DNA of 64,000 nt from an uncultured Pseudomonadales bacterium (lineage in GTDB: Bacteria; Patescibacteriota; Microgenomatia; UBA1400; PJMF01), in the NCBI GenBank assembly GCA_964393205.1, contig CAYMSV010000002.1:28078-92077 (forward strand), in the 5' to 3' direction. This document shows, in pieces, positions 16,452 through 60,822 of the stretch. Position numbers and translations under genes: made by a program. The notes under the pieces are model-generated. The model searched no databases and was not told the origin of the DNA. It saw only the letters and a list, made by a program, of their open reading frames with translations. How positions within the stretch are numbered: the stretch's first letter is position 1; the number at the start of each line of letters is the position of its first letter.

Positions 16452-17219
16452 TTGACTGGTAGCCTGTATTATAAAACAAAGCCTGACTTTTTAAAAAAGC
16501 AAAGTCAGTTGGCTGTCAATTTAAAAAACTACAATGCTTTGGTGAACAACTTTTCATTTTTTCACTGTTGGCAAGCTTATTTACTACCAGATTTTTGTCA
16601 AAACTGTCAAAGATTGGGACCAATGCTTTGTGAAAGTTGCTATCAATTAGTTGAATTTTTTTGGCAAGAAGATCTAGCAGCGTTTTTTGCCAAAAATTTT
16701 GATAAAAATTATTTTGACCAAATAAGAGTGATGGCTCGTTTTAAATCTCCAATTAGCTCCTTAATTAAATCATTAAAATATCAACATCATAGCCGAGCAG
16801 CTAAGTTTCTAGCTCAAATGTTGTTTTTCCACCTAAATATTAGTTACGAAAAATTTGACTTAATAACCTTTGTTCCTATTCATAATCAAAAAATTAAAAA
16901 AAGAGGATACAATCAAAGTCAACTTATCGCTGAGGAACTAGCTGTTTGGACTAAAAAGCCTTGTTTAAATTTACTAAAAAAAACTGTCAACAATACTGCT
17001 CAAGCACAAATTAGTGACAAACAACAACGCTTGCAACGACTCAATAATACTTTTGAAATTTCTCATCCTTATTCTCAACACCGACCCTTAAAAAATAAAA
17101 ATATTTTAATAATTGATGATGTAATTACTACTGGCGCCACTATAAATAGCGCCAGTCGTGTATTAAAAAAATATGGGGTTGAGTGGGTTTCAGTTTTAAC
17201 TTTAGCAGCTAATCTATAA
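16452..17219 (+). CDS. ComF-family phosphoribosyltransferase-domain protein (ComFC-like)
   Basis: N-terminal Cys-rich Zn-finger (C..CxxC...CxxC) and C-terminal PRTase motif ILIIDDVITTGATI. The ORF begins 1 nt after the tRNA-Val gene on the opposite strand, so the true start is uncertain. Confidence 0.65.
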   Translation: MTGSLYYKTKPDFLKKQSQLAVNLKNYNALVNNFSFFHCWQAYLLPDFCQNCQRLGPMLCESCYQLVEFFWQEDLAAFFAKNFDKNYFDQIRVMARFKSPISSLIKSLKYQHHSRAAKFLAQMLFFHLNISYEKFDLITFVPIHNQKIKKRGYNQSQLIAEELAVWTKKPCLNLLKKTVNNTAQAQISDKQQRLQRLNNTFEISHPYSQHRPLKNKNILIIDDVITTGATINSASRVLKKYGVEWVSVLTLAANL

Positions 17220-17244
17220 ATTAAAAAAGATCAAACAAATATTA

Positions 17245-17273
17245 TTGATTTTCTCGAGTAAAAATGTTATAAT
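17245..17273 (+). promoter_or_regulatory. Candidate sigma70-type promoter for ssrA (-35 TTGATT, 17-nt spacer, -10 TATAAT)
   Basis: TTGATT at 17245-17250 and TATAAT at 17268-17273, about 17 nt upstream of the tmRNA 5' end. Confidence 0.4.
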
Positions 17274-17289
17274 AACTTGTTCTTTAACA

Positions 17290-17691
17290 GGGGATGTATT
17301 GTATTGACGTCAGTCAACTTTAATCATTGCAGATCATCTTTGGTGAAAAGATGTTAAACAACACTAAAAAATAACTGTCAAAAACAGTTTTAAAACAGCA
17401 GTTAATAAAGTCGCCAGTCTTTTTGACTTTGGCTTCGTAGCTGCTCCTGCTTTTGCTTAATTGTAAAAGTAGGCATCTAGTGTTGAACTCTTATCGACGG
17501 TTCACATTAGGTGAAAACCTAGTCGATTAGCAGAAATAAAGAATCAGGTCACTTTATTTCCAAGAATTAGGCCTGGATGAAGCAAAAAAAGTTTGTCTAT
17601 TTACTTCTTGCTTCAAATCGAAAATAAACTAAATCTGTAGATATCGTTAAAGTCAGATTAGCGGACGCGGGAGCAAAACCCGCCATCTCCA
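17290..17691 (+). ncRNA. ssrA: tmRNA (transfer-messenger RNA, SsrA)
   Basis: 5' GGGGATG... pairs with 3' ...CATCTCC-A, forming an acceptor stem with a G3.U70 wobble (the alanine identity element). T-arm GCGGG-AGCAAAA-CCCGC sits at the 3' end. An internal tag frame GUC|GCC AGU ... GCU UUU GCU UAA (17413-17460) is preceded by an in-frame TAA and encodes ASLFDFGFVAAPAFA. The AAGUCGCC context resembles E. coli UAGUCGCA. About 402 nt; CCA is not encoded. Confidence 0.75.
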
Positions 17692-17770
17692 CAACAGCAG
17701 ATCCTTATCTAAAAAATCAGCACTATATTAAAAATAGTGATTTTCTATATCAAAAAATCTATGAAGTTGC

Positions 17771-18268
17771 TTAATTCTTGGATTTAAGTGTCAAACCTAG
17801 ACCAAACACCAATATTCCAAAAGCAAAAATTATAATTGTGTTCTCTAAAGCGCCTGATTCTGGCAAAGTTTCTTCGGTGGCTGTCTCAGCAGAAGGCGTA
17901 CTAAGGCTGGCAACTTCCGCTACATTTATAACTAAGTCTAAAGTTTCTCCACCAGAACTAACTACCAAATCATTTTCACCATAAGAAACTTCCCTAAAAT
18001 TAACTCCCCAATTTCCCTCAACGTCAGCAACAGTATCATTGTTTAAATCAGCAAGTGCTATCTGCACTTCAGCTGAAGGAGAGGCAGTTCCTGTTACTGT
18101 GAAAGTCGTTAAGGTAGTTTCATAAACTTTAACTGTAGACCCCAAACCAACAATAGAATCATTACCTCCTATAGCATCAATCGTAAGAGCACTGGCCAAT
18201 GCTGGCTTAATTAAAAAAATAAGTAAAAATAAAAAAAGTAATTGAAAAGTTTTTATCATTTTTTTCAT
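17771..18268 (-). CDS. Small secreted protein with C-terminal LPESG sorting signal (putative sortase substrate)
   Basis: Signal peptide (MKKMIKTFQLLFLFLLIFLIKPALA). C-terminal LPESG, then hydrophobic helix ALENTIIIFAFGILVFGLGLTL, then basic tail KSKN. Paralog of 24028..24537. Confidence 0.6.
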   Translation of the reverse strand: MKKMIKTFQLLFLFLLIFLIKPALASALTIDAIGGNDSIVGLGSTVKVYETTLTTFTVTGTASPSAEVQIALADLNNDTVADVEGNWGVNFREVSYGENDLVVSSGGETLDLVINVAEVASLSTPSAETATEETLPESGALENTIIIFAFGILVFGLGLTLKSKN

Positions 18269-18331: not shown

Positions 18332-20521
18332 TTATGAAAAACTTTTACTAGCTAAATATTCTTGAATCTTAACTCTAAAAACTTCTCTAGCCTTGCTACC
18401 CTGAGCAGGTCCGACAAAACCAGCCTCTTCTAGTTGGTCCAAAATACGAGCTGCCCGAGCATAACCCACAGACAAGTGACGCTGAATAGCACTAGAAGAA
18501 GCACTATCACTAGTACTAAATAACTGTGCTGCTTCATCAAATCTCTCATCTCGATCAGCCTCTCCCTCTACACTAACGCTAACGGAGCCTCCTACCCTGC
18601 TAACCTGATATTTATTAGTAATTTCTTCCTCATAATTTGGTTTTTTACCTCTAGATTTAAGAAAATCAATCAGTTGATCAATTTCTCTAGCATCAACGTA
18701 AGTGCCTTGAATACGTTGTGGTTTAGCTCTATTTGGAGATAAATAAAGCATATCTCCCTTACCTAAAAGTTTCTCTGCGCCAGGAGTATCTAAAATTACT
18801 CGACTATCAGTCACGCTCGAAACATTGAAGGCAATTCTGGTGGGCATGTTAGCCTTAATTAAGCCAGTGATTACATCAACAGATGGTCGCTGGGTAGCTA
18901 AAACCAAATGAATTCCTACCGCTCTAGCCATTTGAGCAATCCTAGTAACATTGTCTTCCACCTCTTTGGGAGCGAAAAGCATAATGTCTGCCATTTCATC
19001 AATAACAATCACAATATTTGGCATAGTGGCCAAACCAGCTAGCTCATTATAATCTCGAATACTTCTCACTCCAACATCTTCAAGCATTTTATAGCGCTTA
19101 GACATTAGCTCCGAAGCCCATTTAAGAGCCGACACCACTTTATCTGGATCAACAATGACTGGCGTTAACAAATGAGGAATATCTTTATATTTGGTCAACT
19201 CTACTCGTTTAGGATCAACCAAAATTAATTTAACCTCCTCTGGAGTGGCACGAAACAAAATGGAACACAAAAATGAATTAACACAAACAGATTTACCCGA
19301 ACCTGTGGCTCCAGCAATTAATAAATGGGGCATTTCGGCAATGTCTGCCACAATTGGTTTACCAGCTACATCAACTCCTAAACTAACTGCCAATTTTGAA
19401 GGATGTTTTTTTACCACTGGTGAAGATAGCATTGTCTTTAAGGGCACTATTTCAGCACTATGATTTGGTACCTCTACTCCTACCAAATTACGACCAGGAA
19501 TTGGTGCTTCAATTCTTACTTGTCCAGTCGGTGCTGCTAAAGCTAGAGCTAAATCAGTTGACAGCGCTGTAATTTTTGATAAACGAGTTCCTTTACTGAT
19601 ATCTAAAGCATACTGAGTAACTGCCGGACCAGGATTATATTCTGCAACCTTGGCGTTAATGCCAAAAGAATCTAGAGTATTTTCAATAACCTGAGCATTG
19701 GCTTTGACATCACCACGATCAGCTTTTGCTCCTCTCTCTACAGATAATAAAGACAGGGGAGGATAATCCCAAACCATTGGCATAGAAGAAGCATTGAGAG
19801 CTTCTTCTCCTTCTAAACCACCTGAAGATTTGGCAGCTTGAGTTTCTGCCTTGGTCAAAACAGCAGTACTACTAGTTTCATCAAGTTCGATTTCTTCATT
19901 AAAATCGGCTCCTCTCTTGAGAGTTTTCTTAGTAAAAGCTAATTTAGGAATTGAAAAGTGACGAGATTTTTTTATTTCTTTATCAGTTACATCTTCATCA
20001 ACAGATTTCAAACCTTTTTTAGCTAATTTCGCCTTACGACGATTGGCAATTATTTTGCTTAAACCATTAACTAAATCAGTCAAAGAACTCTGGGAAAGAA
20101 TTAAAAAACCAATTAAAGATAAGGAAGCAAACACTATATAAGCACCTATTGTGCTGATTAGTCTTGATAAATTATTGAAAATATTAATCCCAATTTCACC
20201 AGATCGAGATACTCCCATCACCCCAATCATCATTAAAATCACTCCGAGCAAAATTGTTGGCTTAGACCAAGCATGCTTGCTACGAATCATTACTAAACCT
20301 GAAGCAATAAAAACAAATGGTAAAAATAACATGGATAAGCCAAGTTTATCTGCTAAAAAATTGTTAAGAGCAATCAACCATTGTCCTTGTCCACTGAAAG
20401 AGACCAGCACCAAGCTACCAAACATAATTAGCAACACTGCTATTATTGAATAAGTGGTATCGGCTCGCATTTTTAAACGAATTGCTTTACGTTTTTTGCG
20501 ACGAGACTTTCTTTTTGCCAT
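18332..20521 (-). CDS. ftsK: DNA translocase FtsK
   Basis: N-terminal multi-TM region, Walker A GATGSGKSV, Walker B IVIVIDEMAD, and a C-terminal gamma (winged-helix) domain IQRHLSVGYARAARILDQLEEAGFVGP. Confidence 0.9.
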   Translation of the reverse strand: MAKRKSRRKKRKAIRLKMRADTTYSIIAVLLIMFGSLVLVSFSGQGQWLIALNNFLADKLGLSMLFLPFVFIASGLVMIRSKHAWSKPTILLGVILMMIGVMGVSRSGEIGINIFNNLSRLISTIGAYIVFASLSLIGFLILSQSSLTDLVNGLSKIIANRRKAKLAKKGLKSVDEDVTDKEIKKSRHFSIPKLAFTKKTLKRGADFNEEIELDETSSTAVLTKAETQAAKSSGGLEGEEALNASSMPMVWDYPPLSLLSVERGAKADRGDVKANAQVIENTLDSFGINAKVAEYNPGPAVTQYALDISKGTRLSKITALSTDLALALAAPTGQVRIEAPIPGRNLVGVEVPNHSAEIVPLKTMLSSPVVKKHPSKLAVSLGVDVAGKPIVADIAEMPHLLIAGATGSGKSVCVNSFLCSILFRATPEEVKLILVDPKRVELTKYKDIPHLLTPVIVDPDKVVSALKWASELMSKRYKMLEDVGVRSIRDYNELAGLATMPNIVIVIDEMADIMLFAPKEVEDNVTRIAQMARAVGIHLVLATQRPSVDVITGLIKANMPTRIAFNVSSVTDSRVILDTPGAEKLLGKGDMLYLSPNRAKPQRIQGTYVDAREIDQLIDFLKSRGKKPNYEEEITNKYQVSRVGGSVSVSVEGEADRDERFDEAAQLFSTSDSASSSAIQRHLSVGYARAARILDQLEEAGFVGPAQGSKAREVFRVKIQEYLASKSFS

Positions 20522-20609: not shown

Positions 20610-22274
20610 CTAAAAATCCCAAATTACCGGTAAAATCATAGGTTCACGACGAATAATTTTGAATAAACGACGCGCTAAACGCTTTTCTAAGCGACGTTTT
20701 AATTCTTCATCTTTGACTTTTCTTCCCAAATCCTGAATGATAGCTACTGTTTCTTTTTCAATATATTTGACTACCTCATCAGCTTCTTTCATGAAAACAA
20801 AACCTCGTGAAATAACTTGCATTTTATTAAAATCGAACTGATTTTTAAATCTAGGTAACAATAAAACAATAATCCCAGCTTTAGATAAATTTAAACGATC
20901 AGATAAAACAACTGGACCAACATCACCTATACCTAAACCATCAATGGTTTTTGCAGACAGAGGAATTTCTTTAGCCACCGACACTCCTTGTTGATCAATT
21001 TGTAAGAGCTCTCCACTCTTAGGTATTAAAATTTGCCAATCTTTATAATCCAAAGGCTTGGCTACCGTTTTCTTAAATAGAGTTCGATGACGATCAGCAC
21101 CTCCAATAGGCATAATAAACTTAGGTTTGAGCAGTTTTAGCATTAATTCCTGCTCACTACGACTAGCATGACCAGAACGATGAATATCAGGACGAATGTC
21201 TGGATAAACAACCTCCACATCATCAGCTGCTAATTGATCAATAGCTGTGTAATAAGGAATTTCGTTACCTGGAATTACATCGGCTGAAAAAATCACTTTA
21301 TCACGATTACTAATCTGGACTATTTGGTGGTCGCCGTAAACAGCTCTGACTAAAGAAGAGCCTTCTTGACCCTGACTACCAGCTATAATTACACAGAGCT
21401 TATTATCTGGCAATTGATTAATTTTCTTCTTGTCTAAAAGTAAACCTTTTGGAATATTCAAACTTTTAGATTGAGCAGCACTTTTTACATTTTGTTCTAC
21501 GCTGCGACCAACAAAAACCACTTTTCTACCCAATTTACTACAGGCATCAACCGTTTGTTGAATACGATGTAAGTGAGAACTCATTAAAGTTACTAAAATC
21601 TTACCTTCAACACCTTGCATTTCTCTAAATAAAGCAGGACCAACTGTAGATTCAGAGGGAGTCCAATCATCTCTTTCAACTCGTAAACAATCTAAAGAGG
21701 CCATTAATAAGTCACCATCTTGACCAATTTTCTCAACAAAATCCATATCACTAAGCCGCCCATCAACAGGTTGTTTATCTAATTTAAAATCACTACCGTG
21801 GTAAATTTTACCCACAGGTGTCTCTAATAAAATATGTTTTGAATCGGGTACGGAATGAGTAACAGCAATCAATTGAAATTTAAAAGATTGACTTAAATTT
21901 AATTGTTGTCGATCATTTAAAACCTGAATTTTCCGATCAAGCTTCTTATCCCGTAAGCGATCATGAGCAAATTGAGCTGTCAATAGAGAAGCATAAATTG
22001 GAAAATCTGGCAAATTCGGCAATAGATAGGGTAAGGCTCCAATATGGTCGTCATGACCATGACTCAAGATCATACCAACTATCTTTGCTCCTGACTCTAA
22101 TTGATTTAATAAATAACTAATATCTGGAATAAGGGCATCTACCCCAGGCATATACATATCAGGGAAACCGATACCACAATCAATCAGCAATATTTCTTGT
22201 TGATATTGATATAAATAAAGGTTTTGGGTAACCCTACCCATACCTCCTAAAGCTAAAAAGTTAAGTTTTGACAT
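20610..22274 (-). CDS. rnj: Ribonuclease J (metallo-beta-lactamase/beta-CASP family)
   Basis: HxHxDH motif (ILSHGHDDHIGALP), beta-CASP region, and C-terminal RNase J domain. Start taken at ATG 22272-22274 (MSKLNFLALGG), which abuts the stop of the upstream UDG gene. Confidence 0.85.
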   Translation of the reverse strand: MSKLNFLALGGMGRVTQNLYLYQYQQEILLIDCGIGFPDMYMPGVDALIPDISYLLNQLESGAKIVGMILSHGHDDHIGALPYLLPNLPDFPIYASLLTAQFAHDRLRDKKLDRKIQVLNDRQQLNLSQSFKFQLIAVTHSVPDSKHILLETPVGKIYHGSDFKLDKQPVDGRLSDMDFVEKIGQDGDLLMASLDCLRVERDDWTPSESTVGPALFREMQGVEGKILVTLMSSHLHRIQQTVDACSKLGRKVVFVGRSVEQNVKSAAQSKSLNIPKGLLLDKKKINQLPDNKLCVIIAGSQGQEGSSLVRAVYGDHQIVQISNRDKVIFSADVIPGNEIPYYTAIDQLAADDVEVVYPDIRPDIHRSGHASRSEQELMLKLLKPKFIMPIGGADRHRTLFKKTVAKPLDYKDWQILIPKSGELLQIDQQGVSVAKEIPLSAKTIDGLGIGDVGPVVLSDRLNLSKAGIIVLLLPRFKNQFDFNKMQVISRGFVFMKEADEVVKYIEKETVAIIQDLGRKVKDEELKRRLEKRLARRLFKIIRREPMILPVIWDF

Positions 22275-22276
22275 AT

Positions 22277-22936
22277 TTAAAATAATTCCTCTCTCAATTG
22301 TTCTTTTAATTTCAAAGTTTCTTGTTGTGAATCTATCCACTTTATAATTTTTTTAATTTTTTTGAAGTCTTCAATAAATGATTTTTTAACCCGACCAGAC
22401 CTCAGAGCTGCTGCTGGATGATACATTGGTAAAACAAATAAATCTTGATTTTGCCACCTCAACTTATGTAATCGACCGTGTATTTGTGAAATTTTAACAT
22501 CTTCTAAAAATTTGGCCATACTAAAACGTCCTAAGGTAACAATTAATTTAGGTTGAATTAGTTCAATCTCTTTATCTAAAAAAGGTTTAAAAGCTAAAAT
22601 TTCTTTAGGTGAAGGGTCTCGATTATTTGGTGGACGCACCTTTACAATGTTGCTAATAAAAACTGTTTCGGCTGGTAAATCAATTTCTAAAAGAGTTTTA
22701 CGCAATAATTGTCCTGAACGACCAACAAAAGGACGTCTTTCCAAAGCCTCATGATAACCAGGAGCCTCACCAATCAGCATAATTTCAGCATCTTGTTTGC
22801 CTTCACCATGAACTATATCCTCAGCTCGATTAGCTAAAGGAAGTATATTTACATTTTTTTCAAGTAAAGATTCTAATTTAGATAAATTTTTAAGTTCAAT
22901 TAATAGTTTCTCCACTGATAAATCAGTCTTTGACAT
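22277..22936 (-). CDS. Uracil-DNA glycosylase, family 4
   Basis: GEAPG...E...PFVGRSGQLL motif typical of family-4 UDG. HPAA near the C-terminus. Confidence 0.8.
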   Translation of the reverse strand: MSKTDLSVEKLLIELKNLSKLESLLEKNVNILPLANRAEDIVHGEGKQDAEIMLIGEAPGYHEALERRPFVGRSGQLLRKTLLEIDLPAETVFISNIVKVRPPNNRDPSPKEILAFKPFLDKEIELIQPKLIVTLGRFSMAKFLEDVKISQIHGRLHKLRWQNQDLFVLPMYHPAAALRSGRVKKSFIEDFKKIKKIIKWIDSQQETLKLKEQLREELF

Positions 22937-22955: not shown

Positions 22956-24020
22956 CTAATAGCTAGGTAGAAAAATCTTAACATTATCCGGACCTATAAT
23001 CACTTCTTTAAAACCTCTTTCTACAATAATTCGCGCGGCTTTACGCACCGCACCTTTAAGAGTGCGCTGCAATGTTCTCACTCCGGCATCAAAACCTAAA
23101 GGACGTACTAGCGTTGGCCAAATAGCCTCATCAATCTTAAACTGATTTTCTTTTAAGCCAGCTTCTTTCATAACACCTGGCAAAATATACTTTTTTGCAA
23201 TCACAATTTTCTCTTCGTCACTATAAGAAGGCATATCAATTCGCTCCATACGATCAATTACTGCTGTTGCAATACGTCTAGTATTATTACAAGTAGCAAT
23301 AAAAATAGCCTGACTTAAATTAACTGGATAATTAATATAGTTGTCTACAAAGGCATGGTTCTGAGCAGGATCTAATAGTTCTACTAAAACCCCCATAATG
23401 TCATTGTTAGCTTCATCAGCAGCTCGATCAATTTCATCTAGTAAAATTACGGGATTCATTGTCTTAGCTTCACACAAACCCTGAATAATTGCCCCTGGTT
23501 GAGCTTCTAAAATTAATCTTGATTCTCCACGTAATTCTTTAGCAGATACCATACCACCAATAGGAATACGCAATATCTGTCGTCCCAATGCTTCTGCTAA
23601 AGAATAAGCAAAAGTGGTTTTTCCAGTTCCCACTAAACCAACTAAAAGTAATATTGGAGCAGAAAATTCTTGATTGGTAAAATTTTGTTTTTGTAAATTA
23701 AGAATTGCTAAATATTCTAAAAAACGATCTTTAACCTCTTTTAAACCATAATGATGTTTATCAAAAATCGCTTTAGCCGCCTGAATATCCAGTGTATCTT
23801 CACTCTTTTGAGCAAAAGGGATTTTGATCACCCAATCTAAATAACGAGAAACTTTGTCATATTTTTCATCATAATTTCCCAACTTAACGCTACGTTCTAG
23901 AGAAACTAATTCTTTTTTTAGTTTTAATAACAGTTCTTCTGGTAATTGAATCTGTTCAATTTTAGCTCTTAACTCGTCAAGTTCCTGATTTAAAATTTCT
24001 TCAGAATTAATTTGAGACAT
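22956..24020 (-). CDS. Lon-like AAA+ ATPase module lacking the N-terminal (LAN) and C-terminal protease domains
   Basis: Collinear with LonA residues ~230-590: coiled-coil, then HYGLKEVKDRFLEYLAI, Walker A GLVGTGKTT, Walker B ILLDEIDR, sensor-2 region DAGVRTLQRTLKGAVRKAARIIV. The ORF ends where the S16 protease domain would begin. Start taken at the internal ATG (MSQINSEE) to avoid overlap with the upstream gene. Confidence 0.7.
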   Translation of the reverse strand: MSQINSEEILNQELDELRAKIEQIQLPEELLLKLKKELVSLERSVKLGNYDEKYDKVSRYLDWVIKIPFAQKSEDTLDIQAAKAIFDKHHYGLKEVKDRFLEYLAILNLQKQNFTNQEFSAPILLLVGLVGTGKTTFAYSLAEALGRQILRIPIGGMVSAKELRGESRLILEAQPGAIIQGLCEAKTMNPVILLDEIDRAADEANNDIMGVLVELLDPAQNHAFVDNYINYPVNLSQAIFIATCNNTRRIATAVIDRMERIDMPSYSDEEKIVIAKKYILPGVMKEAGLKENQFKIDEAIWPTLVRPLGFDAGVRTLQRTLKGAVRKAARIIVERGFKEVIIGPDNVKIFLPSY

Positions 24021-24027
24021 AAAAAGA

Positions 24028-24537
24028 TTAAAATTGCTTTGCTTGAAGTGTAAATCCCAGTCCAATGCTTAACATTGCTAAGGCCAAAAACAAAATAGTA
24101 GTAGTAGTTGAACCAGCTTCCGGCAAAGTATCTTCAGTACTACTAATCGTAGCTTCTTCAGATTCTGTTGCTTCAGCAACCTCACCAATAGTTAAAACGA
24201 AATCTAATGTTTCATCTCCAGATTCTAAATTAAATTGATGATCACCTTCAGCCAAAGATGAAACCAAGTTTGTCCAACCCCCTTCTGCATCAGCTGTCGC
24301 TGTTTGAGTTGAATCGTTAATCAAGATAGATATGGTAGCAGAGGGAGAAGCTAAACCAGTTAATTCGAAAGTTCCACCAGAATAAGTATAACTTTTCAAG
24401 CTTCCTCCCAGATCTAAATCAGACACATCCATAGCTCCTAAACCAGTGATTTGCAAAGAAGAAGCTAAAACCTTTTGAAAAAAAAGCAAGGGAAAAGCGA
24501 GTAATAACAATGTAGTAACAATTAAAATTTTTCTCAT
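24028..24537 (-). CDS. Small secreted protein with C-terminal LPEAG sorting signal (paralog of 17771..18268)
   Basis: Signal peptide. Shares SGG..L.G.ASPSA...I...D...AD.EG.W and G.ETLD.V..I.EVA blocks with the LPESG protein. C-terminal LPEAG, then hydrophobic segment STTTTILFLALAMLSIGLGFTL, then QAKQF. Confidence 0.6.
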   Translation of the reverse strand: MRKILIVTTLLLLAFPLLFFQKVLASSLQITGLGAMDVSDLDLGGSLKSYTYSGGTFELTGLASPSATISILINDSTQTATADAEGGWTNLVSSLAEGDHQFNLESGDETLDFVLTIGEVAEATESEEATISSTEDTLPEAGSTTTTILFLALAMLSIGLGFTLQAKQF

Positions 24538-33901: not shown

Positions 33902-36181
33902 TTAAGAACGGCGTCTGTTGTTTTGATTATTATTCGAACGATAGTTACGATTACTACTTCGACCCTGATCAAAACGTCTTTGACCTCCGCCACGTGTTGA
34001 ATTAGAACGAGCTTCTTTTTGAGCAGCTTCTTCCTCTGGAGTAAGAGCTGTTAAAGCTATTTTACCATCTGGACCTATTTCTTTAATACGTATCTTTAAA
34101 TGATCGCCCAGTTTAACTTTTTCATGAGCGTCCCTCACATAATCAGTATACATATTAGATACATGAAGCAGACCATCTCGTCCCGGCAAATATTCAACAA
34201 AAGCACCATAGTTTTCAACTCTAGTAACTTCGCCTTCAAATTCATCACCAACTTCTACTTCTCTAACTAAGCCATCTATCATTTCCAAAGCTTGATCTAT
34301 TGCTTCTTGATCCGGAGAAGAAATATTAATAACGCCCTGTTTCTTTTCTTTATCTTCAACTACGTTGACCTCTGCTCCAGTTTTTTCAATAATATCCTTA
34401 ATAACACTACCGCCACTACCAATCACTGTACCAATCTTTTCTGCAGGGATAACTAATTGAGATACTTTTGGCGCATATTGGCTTAATTCTTCTCGTGAAC
34501 TAGTAATATTTTTAAGCATTTCTTGCATAATATGCATGCGACCCTTATGAGCTTGAGAAAGAGCTTTGACTAAGATGTCTTTGTCTATACCTTTTAGTTT
34601 AATATCCATCTGAATAGCTGTAATTCCTTTTTCACTACCAGCTACTTTAAAATCCATGTCACCGACGTGGTCTTCTAAGCCCTGAATATCCGAAAGAATT
34701 ATAAACTTGTCTTTACCGTCACTCATCAATCCCATGGCAATACCTGAAACAGGTCGCTTAAGAGCCACACCAGCTGCCATTAAAGACAGAGTGGAACCAC
34801 AAACAGCAGCTTGAGAGGTTGAGCCATTAGAACTCATGATCTCAGTTACCACTCGAATCGCATAAGGAAATTCTTCTTGTGAAGGTAACATTGGCCTCAG
34901 CGCTCTTTCAGCAAGAGCTCCATGACCAATTTCTCGTCTCTTAGGATAAGCAATGCGTCCAGCTTCTCCAGAAGCATAGGGAGGCATGTTGTAATGATGC
35001 ATGTAATGTCTCACTCTCTCACCAGTAATATCTTCAACTGTTTGACCCAAAGAAGGATCGGCTAAAGTTACTACAGTCAAAGCTTGAGTTGCACCTCTTT
35101 TAAACATAGCGCTGCCGTGAGCCCTAGGTAAAACATCAATTTCTGTCCAAATTTGTCTAATTTCATCAGTTTTTCGACCATCCGGACGAACTCCATCTTC
35201 AAGAATCATTCTTCGAGCTTCATCTTTTTCTAATTGATAAATGATATCTGCTACCATAGCAACACTAACTTCTTTATCACTCTCTTTGGCCTGATCAGTT
35301 TTTTCAGCAACAATCTTTTCAATTAATTCGCTGATGCCAGAATCTTCCAGTTGTGCTTTCTTAAGCACAGCCTGATTAATTTCTGGACCATACTTTTGAT
35401 CAATTTCTGACTTCAATTCGCTGATAAATGATTGCTCATCTTCGCTGATTTCCTCAGTCAAAACTGCTTTTTCTTTGCCAATTTCTTTGGCAATCTTTTC
35501 AATTTCTCCACAAACTCCAGATAAAACTTCTTGAGCTTTAACTAAAGCATCGACAATAATTGACTCTTTAACCTCGTTTGCTCCAGCTTCTACCATCACA
35601 ATTGAAGTTTTAGAAGCTGACACAATTAGATCAAGATCGTTTTCTTCGATTTCACTTTTTAGAGGGTTAAAGATAAATTGCTCTTTTGAACCATCTTTGG
35701 CTAAAGCTAATCTAGCTCCGGCAATAGGCCCATCAAAAGGAATTTCACTAATTTGTAGCGCTAAACCAGCAGACAATAGAGCCATCATATCTGGCTCATT
35801 TTCACCATCATAAGATAGAACTGTGCTGATTATTTGTACTTCATGTTTAATTCCATCTGGAAATAAAGGACGCATGGTGCGATCTATCACTCTAGCTCGC
35901 AAAATTGCATCATCCGTAGGACGACCCTCTCTTTTTACCCAACGAGAACCTTTAATCATACCGCTTGAATAGAGTTTTTCCTCGAATTCAACTGATAAAG
36001 GAAAGTAACCGAGATTAACTTTACGACCAAGTGCTACTGTAGTGTGTACAACAGTGTCACCACATTGTGCTAATACTGCAGCACTAACTTGTTCACTAAA
36101 TTTACCAACTGTAAATTTAATGGTTTTATCACCAATGACCACATCACGATGATATTGCTTTTCATAACTTGGATAAGACAT
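33902..36181 (-). CDS. pnp: Polyribonucleotide nucleotidyltransferase (PNPase) with an Arg/Asn-rich C-terminal tail
   Basis: Two RNase PH domains, KH, and S1 (GEVTRVENYGAFVEY). The extra ~40-aa tail is RSNSTRGGGQRRFDQGRSSNRNYRSNNNQNNRRRS. Confidence 0.95.
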   Translation of the reverse strand: MSYPSYEKQYHRDVVIGDKTIKFTVGKFSEQVSAAVLAQCGDTVVHTTVALGRKVNLGYFPLSVEFEEKLYSSGMIKGSRWVKREGRPTDDAILRARVIDRTMRPLFPDGIKHEVQIISTVLSYDGENEPDMMALLSAGLALQISEIPFDGPIAGARLALAKDGSKEQFIFNPLKSEIEENDLDLIVSASKTSIVMVEAGANEVKESIIVDALVKAQEVLSGVCGEIEKIAKEIGKEKAVLTEEISEDEQSFISELKSEIDQKYGPEINQAVLKKAQLEDSGISELIEKIVAEKTDQAKESDKEVSVAMVADIIYQLEKDEARRMILEDGVRPDGRKTDEIRQIWTEIDVLPRAHGSAMFKRGATQALTVVTLADPSLGQTVEDITGERVRHYMHHYNMPPYASGEAGRIAYPKRREIGHGALAERALRPMLPSQEEFPYAIRVVTEIMSSNGSTSQAAVCGSTLSLMAAGVALKRPVSGIAMGLMSDGKDKFIILSDIQGLEDHVGDMDFKVAGSEKGITAIQMDIKLKGIDKDILVKALSQAHKGRMHIMQEMLKNITSSREELSQYAPKVSQLVIPAEKIGTVIGSGGSVIKDIIEKTGAEVNVVEDKEKKQGVINISSPDQEAIDQALEMIDGLVREVEVGDEFEGEVTRVENYGAFVEYLPGRDGLLHVSNMYTDYVRDAHEKVKLGDHLKIRIKEIGPDGKIALTALTPEEEAAQKEARSNSTRGGGQRRFDQGRSSNRNYRSNNNQNNRRRS

Positions 36182-43094: not shown

Positions 43095-43817
43095 CTAATC
43101 AACCATACTTTCAATCAAGCCTTTAAAATATTTCATCATCGGTAAAATATAAGGATAGTCAAAACGTTTGGAACCAAGTACCGCGAAACGACAAGGATGC
43201 TCTGGTAAATCTAACTCAACAAACATAATTCCAATAGGATCAAGCTCACTGTTGCCTAATTCTTGGCCAAAAACAACTTTAACCGCATTTTCACTTTGAG
43301 ATTTTTGAAAGATTTCATCCATAACCGCTCGCTCTTCAATCATCTGCAAAACTCGACGAGTCAAGTTGATGTCGTAAAATTCTGGCATTTGCAACAAATT
43401 CGCATAACCAGAATGGACTAGGTGTCCCTCAGGAGTGATGGCTAAGCCCAAAGCTTGAGATTTTTCTGCTAAAACCTTAGCTGTTTCCTGAAGCAAATCT
43501 TCCATTTGATTGCGATAGCGCCAAATTTTTTCTTTAACTCCAACCTCATCAGCCACAGATAATTCTTTTTCTTTAACTAGCTCATTAATATAAAGCTTCA
43601 TGGCTAAAGCCGTAGGTACACGGCCAGCACTAATATGAGACTTGATCAAATAACCTTGTTTGGTTAAATAAGCCATTTCATTACGAATAGTAGCTGGAGA
43701 AACACCAATATTGTATTTTTTATCGACAGTTTCTGAACCAACCGGTTCACCTGTTTCAATAAACTCTTCAATAATGGCTCTTAAGATTTGGATTTGTCTG
43801 GCAACTAAATCAATCAT
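43095..43817 (-). CDS. hrcA: Heat-inducible transcription repressor HrcA (short form)
   Basis: N-terminal winged-helix LTARQ/ILRAII..GEPVGS motif, first gene of the hrcA-grpE-dnaK-dnaJ operon. 240 aa. Confidence 0.75.
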   Translation of the reverse strand: MIDLVARQIQILRAIIEEFIETGEPVGSETVDKKYNIGVSPATIRNEMAYLTKQGYLIKSHISAGRVPTALAMKLYINELVKEKELSVADEVGVKEKIWRYRNQMEDLLQETAKVLAEKSQALGLAITPEGHLVHSGYANLLQMPEFYDINLTRRVLQMIEERAVMDEIFQKSQSENAVKVVFGQELGNSELDPIGIMFVELDLPEHPCRFAVLGSKRFDYPYILPMMKYFKGLIESMVD

Positions 43818-45937: not shown

Positions 45938-47962
45938 TTATCTTCTGGCTTTTTTCATTCCCATGACTTTTGTGAACTCATCTGCGTCTAAAGTTTCTTT
46001 ATCTAAAAGAGCTTCTGCCACTTTATCAAGTTGGGGTCGATATTGTTTTAGTAGTTCATTAGCTCTTTTTTCAGCTTCAGATATAAAAGCTAAGATTTCT
46101 TCATCAACTGTCTCAGATATTTTATCTGAAGGTCTCTCTGGCTCTCCCCAAACTCGATTGTAATCATTATCTGCATATTCTGGTCCAAAATACATCGGCC
46201 CCAATTTACTCATACCATAACGAACGACCATCGCTCTAGCAATTCTGGTTGCTTGAGCAATATCATTGGAGGCTCCTGCTGTTTGTTCATCAAAAACCAA
46301 CATTTCTGCTGCTCGACCACCAAACATCACTATCATGTTTTCTAATAATTCAGATTTGAGAATCTGTAATTTGTCTTTTTCTGGCGGGGTAAAAGTGTAA
46401 CCTAAAGCCTGTCCACGAGACACAATTGAAATTCGGTGCACTGGATCGGTATAAGGTAAAACATGAGTCAAAACTGCATGTCCAGCTTCATGATAAGCAG
46501 TCATTTTTTTCTCTAATTCATCTTGAAGACGTTTTTTACTTGGTCCATATTTGACCTTCATCGATGCTTCTTCGATGTCTTCCATATTAATTTTTTGACG
46601 ATTTTCTCTAGCTGAAGAAATGGCTGCTTCATTTAACATGTTCTCTAAATCAGCTCCAGAAAATCCCACTGTTCTTTTAGCCACTTTTTCCCAAGAAACA
46701 TCGCTATTAAAAGTTTTATTTCGAGCGTGAATTTTTAAAATAAACTTTCTCTCTTTAAGATCTGGTAAATTCACCTGTACGCGACGATCAAAACGTCCTG
46801 GTCGAACTAAAGCTGGATCTAACATGTCGCCGCGGTTAGTAGCAGCCATGACGATCACATTATCATTTTTGGTAAAACCATCCATTTCCACTAAAATTTG
46901 ATTAAGTGTTTGCTCTCTTTCATCGTGTGAACTCATGCTATTTCGACCACGTGCCCTACCTATAGCATCAATCTCATCAATAAAAATAATTGCAGGAGCC
47001 AAGCGTTTAGCAGTTTCAAATAAATCTCTAACTCGAGAAGCACCCACTCCCACTAACATTTCCATAAATTCACTACCCGCGATTGAGAGAAACTGTACAT
47101 TAGCTTCTCCAGCTACGGCTCTAGCTAAAAGAGTTTTACCTGTTCCAGCTGGACCAATTAACAATACTCCCTTTGGAGTTCTGGCTCCAACTTTTTGATA
47201 TTTTTTTGGATGTTTTAAGAAATCGACAATTTCTTCCAACTCTTGTTTCGCCTCATCCATGCCACCCACATCTTTAAAACTAATGTCTTGCTTACCTTTG
47301 ATAAAAACTTTGGCTTTGCTTTTACCAATACCTAAAATTCCATCTTGACCGCCTTTTGCCTGTTTAAATATAAACATGAAAAAGACGAACATTAAAATAA
47401 TTGGTAAAAAGTTAATAACCAATTCCCAAAAAAGTTGACCAAAGCTGGCATCTCGCACTTCTAAATCTAATTCTGCTAAATCAATGTCGCTAGCAAAAAG
47501 AATTTCTAATGCTTGCTGTCCCTCTTCTTTTTTAGTAACTTTTTGACTACCATCTTCATAATCCAATCTTAGTTCTTGACCAAGAACTTCAATCTCAGAA
47601 ACTTCTCCTTCCCGCACGTCTCTAACCATTTGACTAACAGAAATTTGCTCCCTAGCTTGTCCCAAACCAAATAAGCTTAAAATTGAAGGTAAAAATAAGA
47701 ATAAAATTACCAAGTAGATGATTGATCGAGAAATTAGACGATTTAGATTAATTTTAATAACCTTTTTTTTACGACTTTTAATCATCGGCATACGCAATTG
47801 TACCTGCTTAACTCTATCGGCCAATTCCCGAGCAGCTTTTTCTTTAGCTTTCTGTTCTTCGGTCTTTTTACTATTTTGACCCTCAACAGCAGTCTTTTGT
47901 TTTTTAACATTTACTGTATCTGAGAGAGATTCTTGTTTCTTTTCTTTATTTTTCTTAAACAT
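45938..47962 (-). CDS. ftsH: ATP-dependent zinc metalloprotease FtsH
   Basis: Two TM helices, AAA+ ([27 protein letters not shown]), HEAGHAV zinc-binding motif. ~70-aa basic N-terminal extension. Confidence 0.95.
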
Positions 47963-48015: not shown

Positions 48016-49074
48016 TTAAGCAACAGTACTTAAACCAAATTTGTCTTTAACTTCGGTGACTGTTTCCTGAGCCACATTTCTGGCTTTTTGATTACCATCT
48101 TCAATAATAGTTTTTACATAATCTGATTTTTTAGCCAATTTTGCTCTTTTTTCTTGAATTGGTAACAATTCTTTATAAATCAACTTTGCCAAATTTTTCT
48201 TAATTTCTGCATAACGCAGACCCTGTTTTTGATAACTAGCCTCGTACTCTTTTCTTAACGAGGAACCAGCAAACAACTCAACTAAAATCATCAAAGTTTT
48301 CACTCCCTTAGATTCTTGATCATTATCATCAAAATAAACCATGTCTTGATGACTATCACTTTCCGCTTCTAACTCCCTCACCTCACCCTTGCCGGAATCG
48401 GTAGGAATTTTAGCAATCTTTTTTTCAATAGTTGCTAAATCATCACTTAGATTGATATAACTACCCTCAACTGATTTGCTCATCTTACCTTCACCAGTTA
48501 AAGAAGGTATGTATTCACCACTAATATTAAAAAACTTTGGTAAAGGAAATTGGGTGCCATAAAGATTATTGCACTTGCGAGCAATTTCTCTTGCTACCTC
48601 AACATGAGGTTTTTGATCAAGGCCTACTGGCACCTGATTGGCTTGATAAAGCAGAATGTCTGCCGCCATTAAAACTGGATAACTTAATAAAGCCATCGTT
48701 ACATTTTCTGGATGTTGTTTAACTTTATCTTTAAAAGTAGGCATATGTTGCATTTTAGCTACAGATATTAAGCTAGAAAAATAAAAAGCTAGTTCAACAT
48801 GTTGTGGCACTGCAGACTGTAAAAATAAAACGCTTTTTTCAGGATCTAAGCCAACTGCCAAATAGTCTAAAATCACTTCCAAGCGACTAGAGCGTAGGTT
48901 TTCTACTTGATAAGGAGTAGTTATTGAATGAGTATCTGCCACCATATAAAAAGTTTCAAATTTAGAATCATCTTGCAGAGCCAACATGCCCTTGATAGCA
49001 CCAAAATAATTGCCTAAATGTAATTGGCCGGTGGCACGAATACCAGATAAAACTCTTTGTTTATTTTTTGACAT
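48016..49074 (-). CDS. trpS: Tryptophan--tRNA ligase
   Basis: Class I HIGH-like motif (TGQLHLGNY) and KMSKS. Start taken at ATG 49072-49074 (MSKNKQRVLSGIRATG). Confidence 0.9.
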   Translation of the reverse strand: MSKNKQRVLSGIRATGQLHLGNYFGAIKGMLALQDDSKFETFYMVADTHSITTPYQVENLRSSRLEVILDYLAVGLDPEKSVLFLQSAVPQHVELAFYFSSLISVAKMQHMPTFKDKVKQHPENVTMALLSYPVLMAADILLYQANQVPVGLDQKPHVEVAREIARKCNNLYGTQFPLPKFFNISGEYIPSLTGEGKMSKSVEGSYINLSDDLATIEKKIAKIPTDSGKGEVRELEAESDSHQDMVYFDDNDQESKGVKTLMILVELFAGSSLRKEYEASYQKQGLRYAEIKKNLAKLIYKELLPIQEKRAKLAKKSDYVKTIIEDGNQKARNVAQETVTEVKDKFGLSTVA

Positions 49075-49127
49075 AGCACCTCTAATCTTAACACAAGCCA
49101 AGAACTAATTGGAATTAATTATTAAAA

Positions 49128-55404: not shown

Positions 55405-55710
55405 CTATTTTATAATTGCTAAAATATCTTCAAATTTTAAAAATTGATATTCTATTTCATCAATGGTGACATCATTGCCGCCCCATTTTTTATAGACGAC
55501 TTTATCAGCAATTTTAACAGGCGCCTTAATTTCCTTAACTCCACTTTCCCAAACCGAATCTCCAACTGCCAAAACCGTACCATATTGTGGTTTCTCGCTG
55601 TCATCGACAGCCAAAATAATCCCCGACGCTGTTTGTTTTTCTTTTTCAGCGGGTTCAACTAATACATAACCGGCGGTGGGTTTGAGTTTTTTAACATCCA
55701 ACTTTGACAT
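55405..55710 (-). CDS. groES: Co-chaperonin GroES
   Basis: MSKLDVKKLKPTAGYVLVEP... Start taken at the internal ATG (55708-55710); the longer ORF adds a non-homologous leader. Confidence 0.9.
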   Translation of the reverse strand: MSKLDVKKLKPTAGYVLVEPAEKEKQTASGIILAVDDSEKPQYGTVLAVGDSVWESGVKEIKAPVKIADKVVYKKWGGNDVTIDEIEYQFLKFEDILAIIK

Positions 55711-55803
55711 AAAAAACCTTTCTGTTTTATTTATTCTTAAATTTAAGAACTTAATAAGTAAATGCTCATTGGAGCTTTTAAAAAATATCACAAAATTAAA
55801 TTT

Positions 55804-60351: not shown

Positions 60352-60822
60352 ATGCTGTTATTGAAGAATAAAAAAGCTTATTACGATTACCAACTAGACC
60401 AAAAATACAAAGCGGGTATTGTTTTAAGTGGAGCTGAAGTAAAAAGTCTAAGGTTAAAACATGGAAGTTTGGCTGGAAGCTACATCAAAGCCATGTCTGG
60501 AAAAAGTGGAAAAACAGAATTGTTTTTAATTAATGCTCAAGTTAATGCTTATCGCTTTGCTGCACAAAATAAAGATTATGATCCAAAAAGAAGTCGTAAA
60601 CTACTACTTAAACGTAAAGAAATTGAACAATTAGTAATAGCCAGTGAACAAAAATCTTATAGCATTGTGCCTTTAGCTTTTTTATTAGAACATAATAAAA
60701 TCAAGCTTGAACTGGCCTTAGGTAGAGGTAAAAAAAGTTTTGAAAAAAGAGAAGACATTAAAAAAAGAGATTTAAAAAGAGAATTAAATAAAAAACTTAA
60801 ACAAAGTCAAATTAAAATCTAA
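60352..60822 (+). CDS. smpB: SsrA-binding protein SmpB
   Basis: NKKAYYDYQL...AGIVLSGAEVKSLR signature with a basic C-terminal tail. Partner of the tmRNA at 17290-17691. Confidence 0.9.
   Translation: MLLLKNKKAYYDYQLDQKYKAGIVLSGAEVKSLRLKHGSLAGSYIKAMSGKSGKTELFLINAQVNAYRFAAQNKDYDPKRSRKLLLKRKEIEQLVIASEQKSYSIVPLAFLLEHNKIKLELALGRGKKSFEKREDIKKRDLKRELNKKLKQSQIKI

Follow-up and report, generated by a model that had tools for sequence, protein, structure and literature searches.

The described subfamilies of Lon, namely A, B, C and BA, are single chains in which an ATPase domain is followed by a protease domain; LonB, LonBA and LonC do without the long N-terminal region of LonA but keep the protease domain, and LonB has a membrane anchor inserted in its AAA+ module (PMC9569914). 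Here we analyze a gene that departs from this arrangement, hereafter called Lon-AAA, which lies on a stretch of 64,000 nucleotides (hereafter the window, from whose first letter all positions are counted) of contig CAYMSV010000002.1 in assembly GCA_964393205.1. The assembly is deposited under the name of an uncultured Pseudomonadales bacterium and is placed by GTDB in the Patescibacteriota (Microgenomatia; UBA1400; PJMF01). Lon-AAA encodes the ATPase module of LonA without the LAN N-terminal domain and without the S16 Ser-Lys peptidase domain; it is conserved in this shortened form, and strongly selected, in hundreds of ultra-small Patescibacteria. Full-text literature searches brought up neither an account of a LonA lacking its protease nor a paper in which 'Patescibacteria' and 'Lon protease' occur together. 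The gene and the parts of its product are the following, with residues numbered along the 354-residue protein.

22956..24020, minus strand: coding sequence of the protease-less LonA-type AAA+ ATPase, 354 residues, start ATG at 24020, stop TAG at 22956-22958
23823..24020, minus strand: N-terminal three-helix bundle, residues ~1-66 (helices 3-23, 28-47 and 51-66 in the model)
23703..23756, minus strand: HHYGLKEVKDRFLEYLAI, residues 89-106, the LonA signature ahead of Walker A
23238..23651, minus strand: AAA+ alpha/beta (large) subdomain, residues ~124-261, from PF00004 and the secondary structure of the model
23613..23639, minus strand: Walker A, GLVGTGKTT, residues 128-136, with Lys134 and Thr135 in 249/249 clade sequences
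23493..23531, minus strand: pore-loop 1, RGESRLILEAQPG, residues 164-176, with low predicted local distance difference test (pLDDT) values at 166-171
23427..23447, minus strand: Walker B, ILLDEID, residues 192-198, with D195 and E196 in 249/249
23391..23426, minus strand: pore-loop 2 region, RAADEANNDIMG, residues 199-210, in which the clade signature D[IV]M[GA] replaces [FWYM]RGDP[AS]S of LonA
23283..23297, minus strand: sensor-1, ATCNN, residues 242-246, with N245 in 249/249
23238..23258, minus strand: arginine-finger motif, IDRMERI, residues 255-261, with R257 in 249/249
23013..23168, minus strand: Lon-type lid (alpha subdomain), residues ~285-336, from PF22667
23070..23090, minus strand: sensor-2 within the lid, DAGVRTL, residues 311-317, with R315 in 249/249

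The coding limits given here differ at the 5' end from those of the first-pass annotation, which had started the gene at TTG 24065. The true start is ATG 24020, 45 nt further in, because the homologues (352-354 residues) all begin at the equivalent position and because a start at TTG 24065 would overlap the upstream gene by 38 nt, whereas ATG 24020 sits 7 nt past the stop of that gene. The protein thus begins with MSQINSEE and ends with KIFLPSY.

Pfam recognizes in this protein AAA (PF00004, E=7e-19) and Lon_lid (PF22667, E=5e-9) and no other family; neither LON_substr_bdg (LAN) nor Lon_C (S16) was found in the scan of the 354 residues. The NCBIfam model TIGR00763, 'endopeptidase La', matches with E=2e-92, but the match is confined to profile positions 252-568 of 795 and its score is about half the curated cut-off (310.8 versus 608.05 bits; for NF008053 the values are 220.3 versus 891). 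The next-best AAA+ models, namely MadB, ClpA, RFC and ClpX, have E>=1e-7 (ClpX model NF003745, E=0.031), and Lon surpasses ClpX and ClpA by more than 80 orders of magnitude. Lon chains of known structure in the PDB align with E=1e-62 to 1e-69 from Lon residue ~238, the end of the N-terminal coiled coil, and the alignment with the protease-bearing chains stops at about Lon residue 574-580, which is the boundary between the AAA+ and protease domains. The AlphaFold model of the monomer (pLDDT 77, predicted template modelling score 0.69) consists of a three-helix bundle, an alpha/beta subdomain and a lid, and Foldseek superimposes it on LonA and LONP1 chains with TMq 0.72-0.81 over ~345 columns. 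The first-pass annotation had proposed a LonA homologue cut down to its AAA+ module, collinear with the central region of LonA and ending at the AAA+/protease boundary, and had left a profile comparison with ClpX and other AAA+ families to be run; the matches above bear out each of these points, and every motif that it quoted is found in the translation. Among the defence models of PADLOC the best match is DolB (E=4.5e-9), through the generic AAA core only, and we rejected membership in the anti-phage AAA+ proteins given that the matches are all of this generic kind and the genomic context is one of core housekeeping genes.

Compared with LonA (TIGR00763, MEROPS S16; E. coli Lon, B. subtilis LonA, M. 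taiwanensis LonA and human LONP1), the bundle, the alpha/beta subdomain and the lid are collinear and ~35-43% identical. The N-terminal bundle is the counterpart of the helical bundle that precedes the AAA+ module in LonA (residues ~240-305 of E. coli Lon), and several of its columns are more constrained in the protease-less proteins than in LonA. The HYGL-x-VK-R-LEYLAV motif, Walker A and B, sensor-1, arginine finger and sensor-2 are common to both, and the predicted fold superimposes with a TM score of ~0.8. Of five defining features of LonA, however, four are wanting in the window protein, that is the S16 domain, the LAN domain, a score above the equivalog cut-off and the pore-loop motifs, while the AAA+ module with its lid and helical bundle is present. 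Judged by its sequence, the window protein is thus not a Lon protease, yet its motor is unmistakably derived from LonA.

A short Lon reading frame could in principle be a pseudogene, a recent truncation or an assembly artefact of a full-length lon, a possibility whose sole support is the expectation that Lon is a three-part single chain (PMC9569914). We therefore looked for relics of the missing parts with hidden Markov models (HMMs) of S16, built from 101 domains, and of LAN, built from 49 domains, both taken from full-length Lon proteins; these were run against six-frame translations of the window and of 26 related loci, ~556 kb in total. The HMMs detect E. coli lon and Bacillus lonA and lonB with values of 1e-37 to 1e-90, but they found no remnant of S16 or LAN in the window or in the 26 loci. 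Equally, tblastn of the N-domain and S16 domain of E. coli Lon against the 64-kb window returned nothing outside the AAA core, and E. coli ClpP gave no match there. That no protease domain is encoded nearby, as the first-pass annotation had stated, holds for the whole window, and the frameshifted remnant that it had named as evidence to the contrary is found neither downstream of the gene nor anywhere else in these 64 kb. The gene downstream, encoding a uracil-DNA glycosylase (UDG), is intact and begins 19 nt past the stop of Lon-AAA.

Moreover, the truncated architecture is not peculiar to this contig. None of 249 clade relatives (0/249) has S16 or LAN, and all of them share the same architecture with a median length of 353 residues. 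More than 120 protein clusters at 66-93% identity are all of ~352 residues with AAA and Lon_lid only; they come from independent NCBI, JGI, ENA and Logan assemblies, across which the synteny is repeated. Against L014, the closest genomic relative (89% amino acid identity), the ratio of nonsynonymous to synonymous substitution rates (dN/dS) is 0.045, and the protease-less ATPase is thereby shown, at the level of its codons, to be under strong purifying selection. The shared ends of the 249 relatives, this dN/dS value, the intact UDG gene, the repeated synteny and the lack of remnants led us to reject the notion of an artefact or decaying gene, to which we attach practically no credence.

Phylogenetic analysis places these proteins together. 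A representative search that was exhaustive over 1.84 billion sequences showed that the protease is missing from all complete representatives whose identity to the query exceeds ~42% (lengths 351-669 residues), as it is from P0149 at 39% identity; neither Pfam nor phmmer detected Lon_C or LAN in these representatives. In a neighbour-joining (NJ) tree of the AAA+ core comprising 133 sequences, the 17 protease-less representatives are monophyletic in 142 of 200 bootstraps, and they share the derived motifs GL.G.GKT in Walker A and D[IV]M in pore-loop 2. A further search, seeded with P0149 as the most divergent member, retrieved 941 additional relatives at E<=1e-40, and the best 120 of these 941 all have 342-507 residues with AAA and Lon_lid only. 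We define the clade by a core of ~342-400 residues that ends at most six residues past the Lon lid, by the motifs GL.G.GKT and D[IV]M, and by the lack of LAN and S16; the window protein shows all of these traits and clusters with the other members in the NJ tree. By the names of their sources and the titles of their genomes, the members are labelled as Pacebacteria, Woesebacteria, Levybacteria, Shapirobacteria, Dojkabacteria, Nomurabacteria and 'Patescibacteria group'. The picture emerging from these comparisons is that of an old, vertically inherited clade of Patescibacteria with a single origin, which appears to have lost the LAN and S16 domains.

Five loci (L014 and L016-L019) carry the titles 'uncultured Pseudomonadales bacterium' or 'uncultured Gammaproteobacteria bacterium', which look like taxonomic mislabels of metagenome-assembled genomes. 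The context is of Patescibacteria type in four of the five: L014 resembles the window, L016 and L019 follow the gene order of the Levybacteria locus L021 (rpsO, pnp, Lon-AAA, rnj, ftsK), and the groES-groEL arrangement is seen in L018. (L017 was left out of the context comparison because no complete Lon-AAA reading frame was recovered from it.) Several longer members of the clade have low-complexity, probably disordered extensions of 100-350 residues rich in Gln, Pro, Ser and Thr, at the N-terminus in P0140/P0272, P0131, P0138, P0139 and P0180 and at the C-terminus in P0162 and P0151; that of P0140 comprises a Gln/Pro-rich repeat region of 313 residues. In P0273, extra sequence is inserted instead where the helical bundle meets the AAA+ core. 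We considered the extensions of P0131, P0138, P0139, P0140, P0180, P0162 and P0151 as relics of the lost domains and rejected this, for they are of low complexity and give no S16 or LAN signal. The top summed scores in the representative search belong to Lon-like proteins of 1000-1700 residues (one of 3865), such as P0121-P0129 and P0135-P0137, which have two to three matched stretches, a C-terminal S16 domain and no detectable LAN; they may be eukaryotic or insertion-rich Lons.

The catalytic residues of the ATPase are invariant throughout the clade. The Lys and Thr of Walker A, the Asp-Glu pair of Walker B, the Asn of sensor-1, the arginine finger and the Arg of sensor-2 are 100% conserved (249/249). 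The residues for ATP binding and hydrolysis are thus fully retained, including the trans-acting arginine finger, and a catalytically competent ATPase is predicted. Around these residues the clade has its own signatures: Walker A reads GL[VQA]G.GKT where LonA has GPPGVGKTS, the GL[VQA]G in place of GPPG being specific to the clade, and pore-loop 2 reads D[IV]M[GA] where LonA has [FWY]RGDP[AS]S.

The pore loops diverge from LonA as well. In LonA, the Tyr of pore-loop 1 and the Trp of pore-loop 2 touch the translocating polypeptide and both are needed for degradation (PMC8503904). The RRTY[IV]G of the pore-loop 1 motif of LonA (RGHRRTY[IV]G) is replaced in the subfamily of the window protein by SRL[LIV]L, in which Ile170 of the window protein occupies the position of the Tyr. 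Of 74 LonA representatives, 72 have Tyr here and 2 have Trp, whereas the close relatives of the window protein have L, I, V or F and distant ones S, N, V, Y, A, F, E or L. Relaxation with respect to LonA is strongest in the clade precisely at the H, T and Y of pore-loop 1 (2.7-2.9 bits in LonA versus 0-0.1 in the clade), at the Gly-Asp-Pro of pore-loop 2 and at the second proline of Walker A. Other subfamilies have their own pore-loop 1 motifs, for instance [RK]-Y-S-P-D or R-F-F-P-D. Because S167, R168, L169 and L171 are invariant in all 119 close relatives of the window protein (119/119), the loop has been re-specified rather than decayed, and it is still under selection in this subfamily.

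Among other known systems, the window protein resembles LonB, LonBA and LonC in missing the long N-terminal region of LonA, but differs from them in having no protease domain, and its predicted model shows no transmembrane insertion of the LonB type in the AAA+ module. With respect to LonC it presents the opposite situation: LonC reportedly is without ATP-powered unfolding activity, whereas here the ATPase site is, by all its residues, intact and the protease is absent. As a stand-alone AAA+ protein without covalently linked peptidase it is comparable to ClpX, HslU and ClpB/Hsp104, within the broad HslU/ClpX/Lon/RuvB clade, and non-degradative, chaperone-like action is established for unfoldases of the ClpX, HslU and ClpB type as well as for proteolytically inactive Lon. 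Unlike ClpX, ClpA and ClpB, however, it matches the models of these proteins only generically (the E values being those given above), and in contrast to ClpX and HslU it has no zinc-binding domain or I-domain, no docking loop of the IGF type, no aromatic residue in pore-loop 1 within its subfamily and no adjacent peptidase gene. A further parallel is found in the FtsHi pseudo-proteases of plants, which likewise belong to an AAA+ protease lineage without proteolysis and are still conserved. FtsHi proteins are said to retain an inactivated protease domain and to be essential in plants; the present case differs in that the domain is wholly deleted, in bacteria, and in the Lon rather than the FtsH lineage.

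The neighbourhood of Lon-AAA was then compared among 22 non-redundant clade loci with flanks of +/-10 kb. A conserved backbone of (dnaK-dnaJ) ... nusA, infB ... rpsO, pnp, Lon-AAA, UDG, rnj, ftsK and a rodZ-like gene extends across lineages whose Lon-AAA proteins share only ~40% identity. In 7 loci, polynucleotide phosphorylase (PNPase) is encoded directly upstream of Lon-AAA or, in L034, one gene off; directly downstream, the window and 8 non-redundant loci have a UDG orthologue (50-77% identity), and in L096 the last base of the Lon-AAA gene is the start of the UDG gene; RNase J follows downstream on the same strand in 12/22 loci. No peptidase family recurs beside Lon-AAA among the 22 loci. 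The window has the same backbone, with ~10 kb inserted between pnp (33902-36181) and Lon-AAA; its GC content is ~35%, and from 351 to 49994 the genes lie with few exceptions on the minus strand. Neighbours of Lon-AAA in the window are listed below.

22277..22936, minus strand: UDG, family-4-like, without cysteines (Pfam, E=3e-32)
20610..22274, minus strand: RNase J (Pfam), with a probable ATG at 22274, 2 nt past the UDG stop
18332..20521, minus strand: FtsK (Pfam), of the same conserved backbone
24028..24537, minus strand: small secreted or surface protein of 169 residues with a signal peptide and a C-terminal LPEAG followed by a hydrophobic tail, no Pfam match

The downstream gene had been called an unrelated UDG. 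A UDG it is, but a recurrent neighbour, found at the loci just mentioned. Having no cysteines, it cannot carry the [4Fe-4S] cluster that is typical of family-4 UDGs. On the other side of Lon-AAA, its position directly downstream of the LPEAG surface protein has been confirmed, with 7 nt between the two genes; the LPEAG gene is always directly upstream in relatives of the Pacebacteria type, and is conserved as the upstream neighbour in this subfamily only. The LPEAG protein looks like a sortase substrate and has a paralogue at 17771-18268 on the minus strand (165 residues, no Pfam match, N-terminus resembling a signal peptide). In several distant lineages (L009, L011 and L094-L097), genes resembling those of type IV secretion or conjugation (for a VirB4/TraG-like DUF87 ATPase, TraC-like and PrgI-like proteins and type IV secretion pilins), as well as FtsA/PilM-like genes, occur within 10 kb of Lon-AAA.

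Part of the clade has a chaperone context. A divergent groES-groEL pair is the direct upstream neighbour in L013, L018 and L020, and in L009 the genes for GroES, GroEL and ClpB lie 4-8 kb from Lon-AAA. The three divergent loci have in common a promoter-like motif, TTGTCAAG, ~17 nt, TGCTAA (at ~1735-1765 in L013, ~9945-9975 in L018 and ~9955-9995 in L020), which precedes the ATG by a few bases in L013 and L018 and by ~24 nt in L020, a spacing that points to transcripts with no leader, or a very short one, in two or more of these loci. CIRCE-like operators of HrcA (TTAGCA-N15-TGCTAA) are present in the window at 43821-47, immediately upstream of hrcA (43095-43817, minus strand), and at 55804-30, immediately upstream of groES (55405-55791, minus strand), while a third match at 48410 falls inside a reading frame of 361 codons (48016-49101) and is probably due to chance. 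None was found upstream of the Lon-AAA, LPEAG or PfkB genes of the window, nor in the intergenic regions between groES and Lon-AAA of L013, L018 and L020, and heat-shock control of Lon-AAA by HrcA and CIRCE was rejected, since operators accompany only the hrcA and groES genes.

An intact FtsH with AAA and M41 domains is also encoded in the window (45938-47962), which gives the organism at least one AAA+ protease. A transfer-messenger RNA (tmRNA) gene lies at 17290-17694 on the plus strand (Rfam RF00023, 98.6 bits; ARAGORN places it at 17175-17692 and predicts an unusually long tag ending in VAAPAFA), and a reading frame of 156 codons at 60352-60822, plus strand, is SmpB-like by its N-terminal sequence. 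FtsH is a candidate protease for tmRNA-tagged proteins, the sole Lon-derived gene seen in the window being without protease domain.

What does a Lon without protease do? We put at about even chances that Lon-AAA is a functional stand-alone ATPase derived from LonA that works as a non-degradative, ATP-driven motor for remodelling or chaperoning. It would assemble into rings via its AAA+ interfaces, as can be deduced from the invariant trans-acting arginine finger R257, which requires a neighbouring subunit. It would then hydrolyse ATP and engage its clients by means of the aliphatic pore-loop 1 (S-R-L-[LIV]-L) and the conserved N-terminal helical bundle; there being no proteolytic chamber, the clients would be let go remodelled or unfolded but undegraded, in a housekeeping role that is not that of a protease. 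We count in favour of such a motor the chaperone context seen in part of the clade and the status of core gene in the rpsO-pnp-Lon-AAA-UDG-rnj-ftsK backbone. Several points weigh against it. The aromatic residue of pore-loop 1 is absent in the subfamily and variable in the clade, and threading of polypeptides may not occur; the protease ring of LonA supplies much of the stability of its hexamer, and ring formation without it is an assumption; Lon-AAA stands outside the HrcA/CIRCE regulon of the window; and its steadiest neighbours are enzymes of nucleic acids, namely PNPase, UDG, RNase J and FtsK, rather than chaperones.

This last point leads to a different function, unlikely in our view but of some weight, in which the motor, working alongside UDG, RNase J, PNPase and FtsK, has as its substrate nucleic acid or a complex of protein with DNA or RNA; the remodelling or recycling of repair or RNA-decay enzymes could be one such task. 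The adjacency of UDG persisting among Lon-AAA proteins that are only ~40% identical, the overlap of the two genes at one base in L096 and the frequency of RNase J and PNPase on either side all fit such a role, as does the loss of the peptide-gripping Tyr, which would suit a non-peptide substrate. Moreover, the DNA motor RuvB is a member of the AAA+ clade that includes Lon, and DNA binding is known for LonA. Yet the neighbourhood resembles an inherited backbone (nusA, infB, rpsO, pnp ... rnj, ftsK) and not a dedicated operon, co-orientation is hardly informative where one strand carries nearly every gene of this part of the window, and UDG is not adjacent in 13/22 loci. The protein has gained no nucleic-acid-binding domain, and a shift towards basic isoelectric points (pI) as a sign of nucleic acid binding was rejected, clade cores being not more basic than those of LonA (mean pI 6.6 versus 7.4).

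The split-Lon alternative, proposed in the first-pass annotation as a partnership with a separately encoded peptidase, has turned out to be the least supported of the functions suggested there. The ATPase would pass its substrates to a peptidase, either a stand-alone S16 domain or one of another kind, whose gene lies elsewhere in the genome, on the principle of two-component AAA+ proteases such as ClpXP and HslUV, and the C-terminal KIF[LM]P[SK][YF] conserved in the close subfamily could be a docking tail. This tail is not conserved throughout the clade, however, and a universal C-terminal docking motif was rejected for that reason; furthermore, the ~556 kb searched contain no S16 signal, no peptidase recurs as a neighbour, the canonical translocating residues of the Lon pore loops have not been retained, and the extensions of longer members are low-complexity tails rather than relics of a peptidase. 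We consider it improbable. Improbable too is an ATP switch or assembly factor, for instance of cell-division or pilus machinery, that takes no substrate into its central pore. The variability of the Tyr-equivalent position across the clade (L/I/V, S, N, Y, F, A, E and others) speaks for it, along with the recurrence of FtsA/PilM-like, FtsK and RodZ-like genes nearby and the long disordered Q/P-rich N-terminal tails of many members, which are typical of interaction hubs. But the association with FtsA/PilM and FtsK is partial and may be due to the synteny of the backbone, and pore-loop 1 is strongly conserved in each subfamily (here with the four invariant residues in 119/119), so it presumably still contacts something.

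Whichever of these functions applies, the remodelling motor that we favour or another, the architecture is real, widespread and unexpected, although domain loss in AAA+ protease lineages has precedents. The proteins of the clade are currently named 'AAA family ATPase' at NCBI, which is uninformative, and 'ATP-dependent Lon protease' at JGI, a label by which Lon proteolysis would be ascribed in error to hundreds of Patescibacteria genomes. A conserved lineage free of protease and LAN domains but with an intact Lon ATPase shows that selection can act on a function of the Lon motor by itself, and the long-debated chaperone-like activity of Lon becomes testable in a natural protein without confounding proteolysis. 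Since minimal genomes keep it, conserved, within the nusA, infB, rpsO, pnp ... rnj, ftsK backbone, the motor is probably important to these organisms. Tentatively, we also entertain the possibility that in a large part of the Patescibacteria classical Lon has been replaced by this protease-less core motor with an aliphatic pore, possibly coupled to PNPase, UDG and RNase J. If this is true, Lon-AAA would be the first natural stand-alone Lon motor and a new element of the minimal network for proteostasis or nucleic acid maintenance in ultra-small bacteria.

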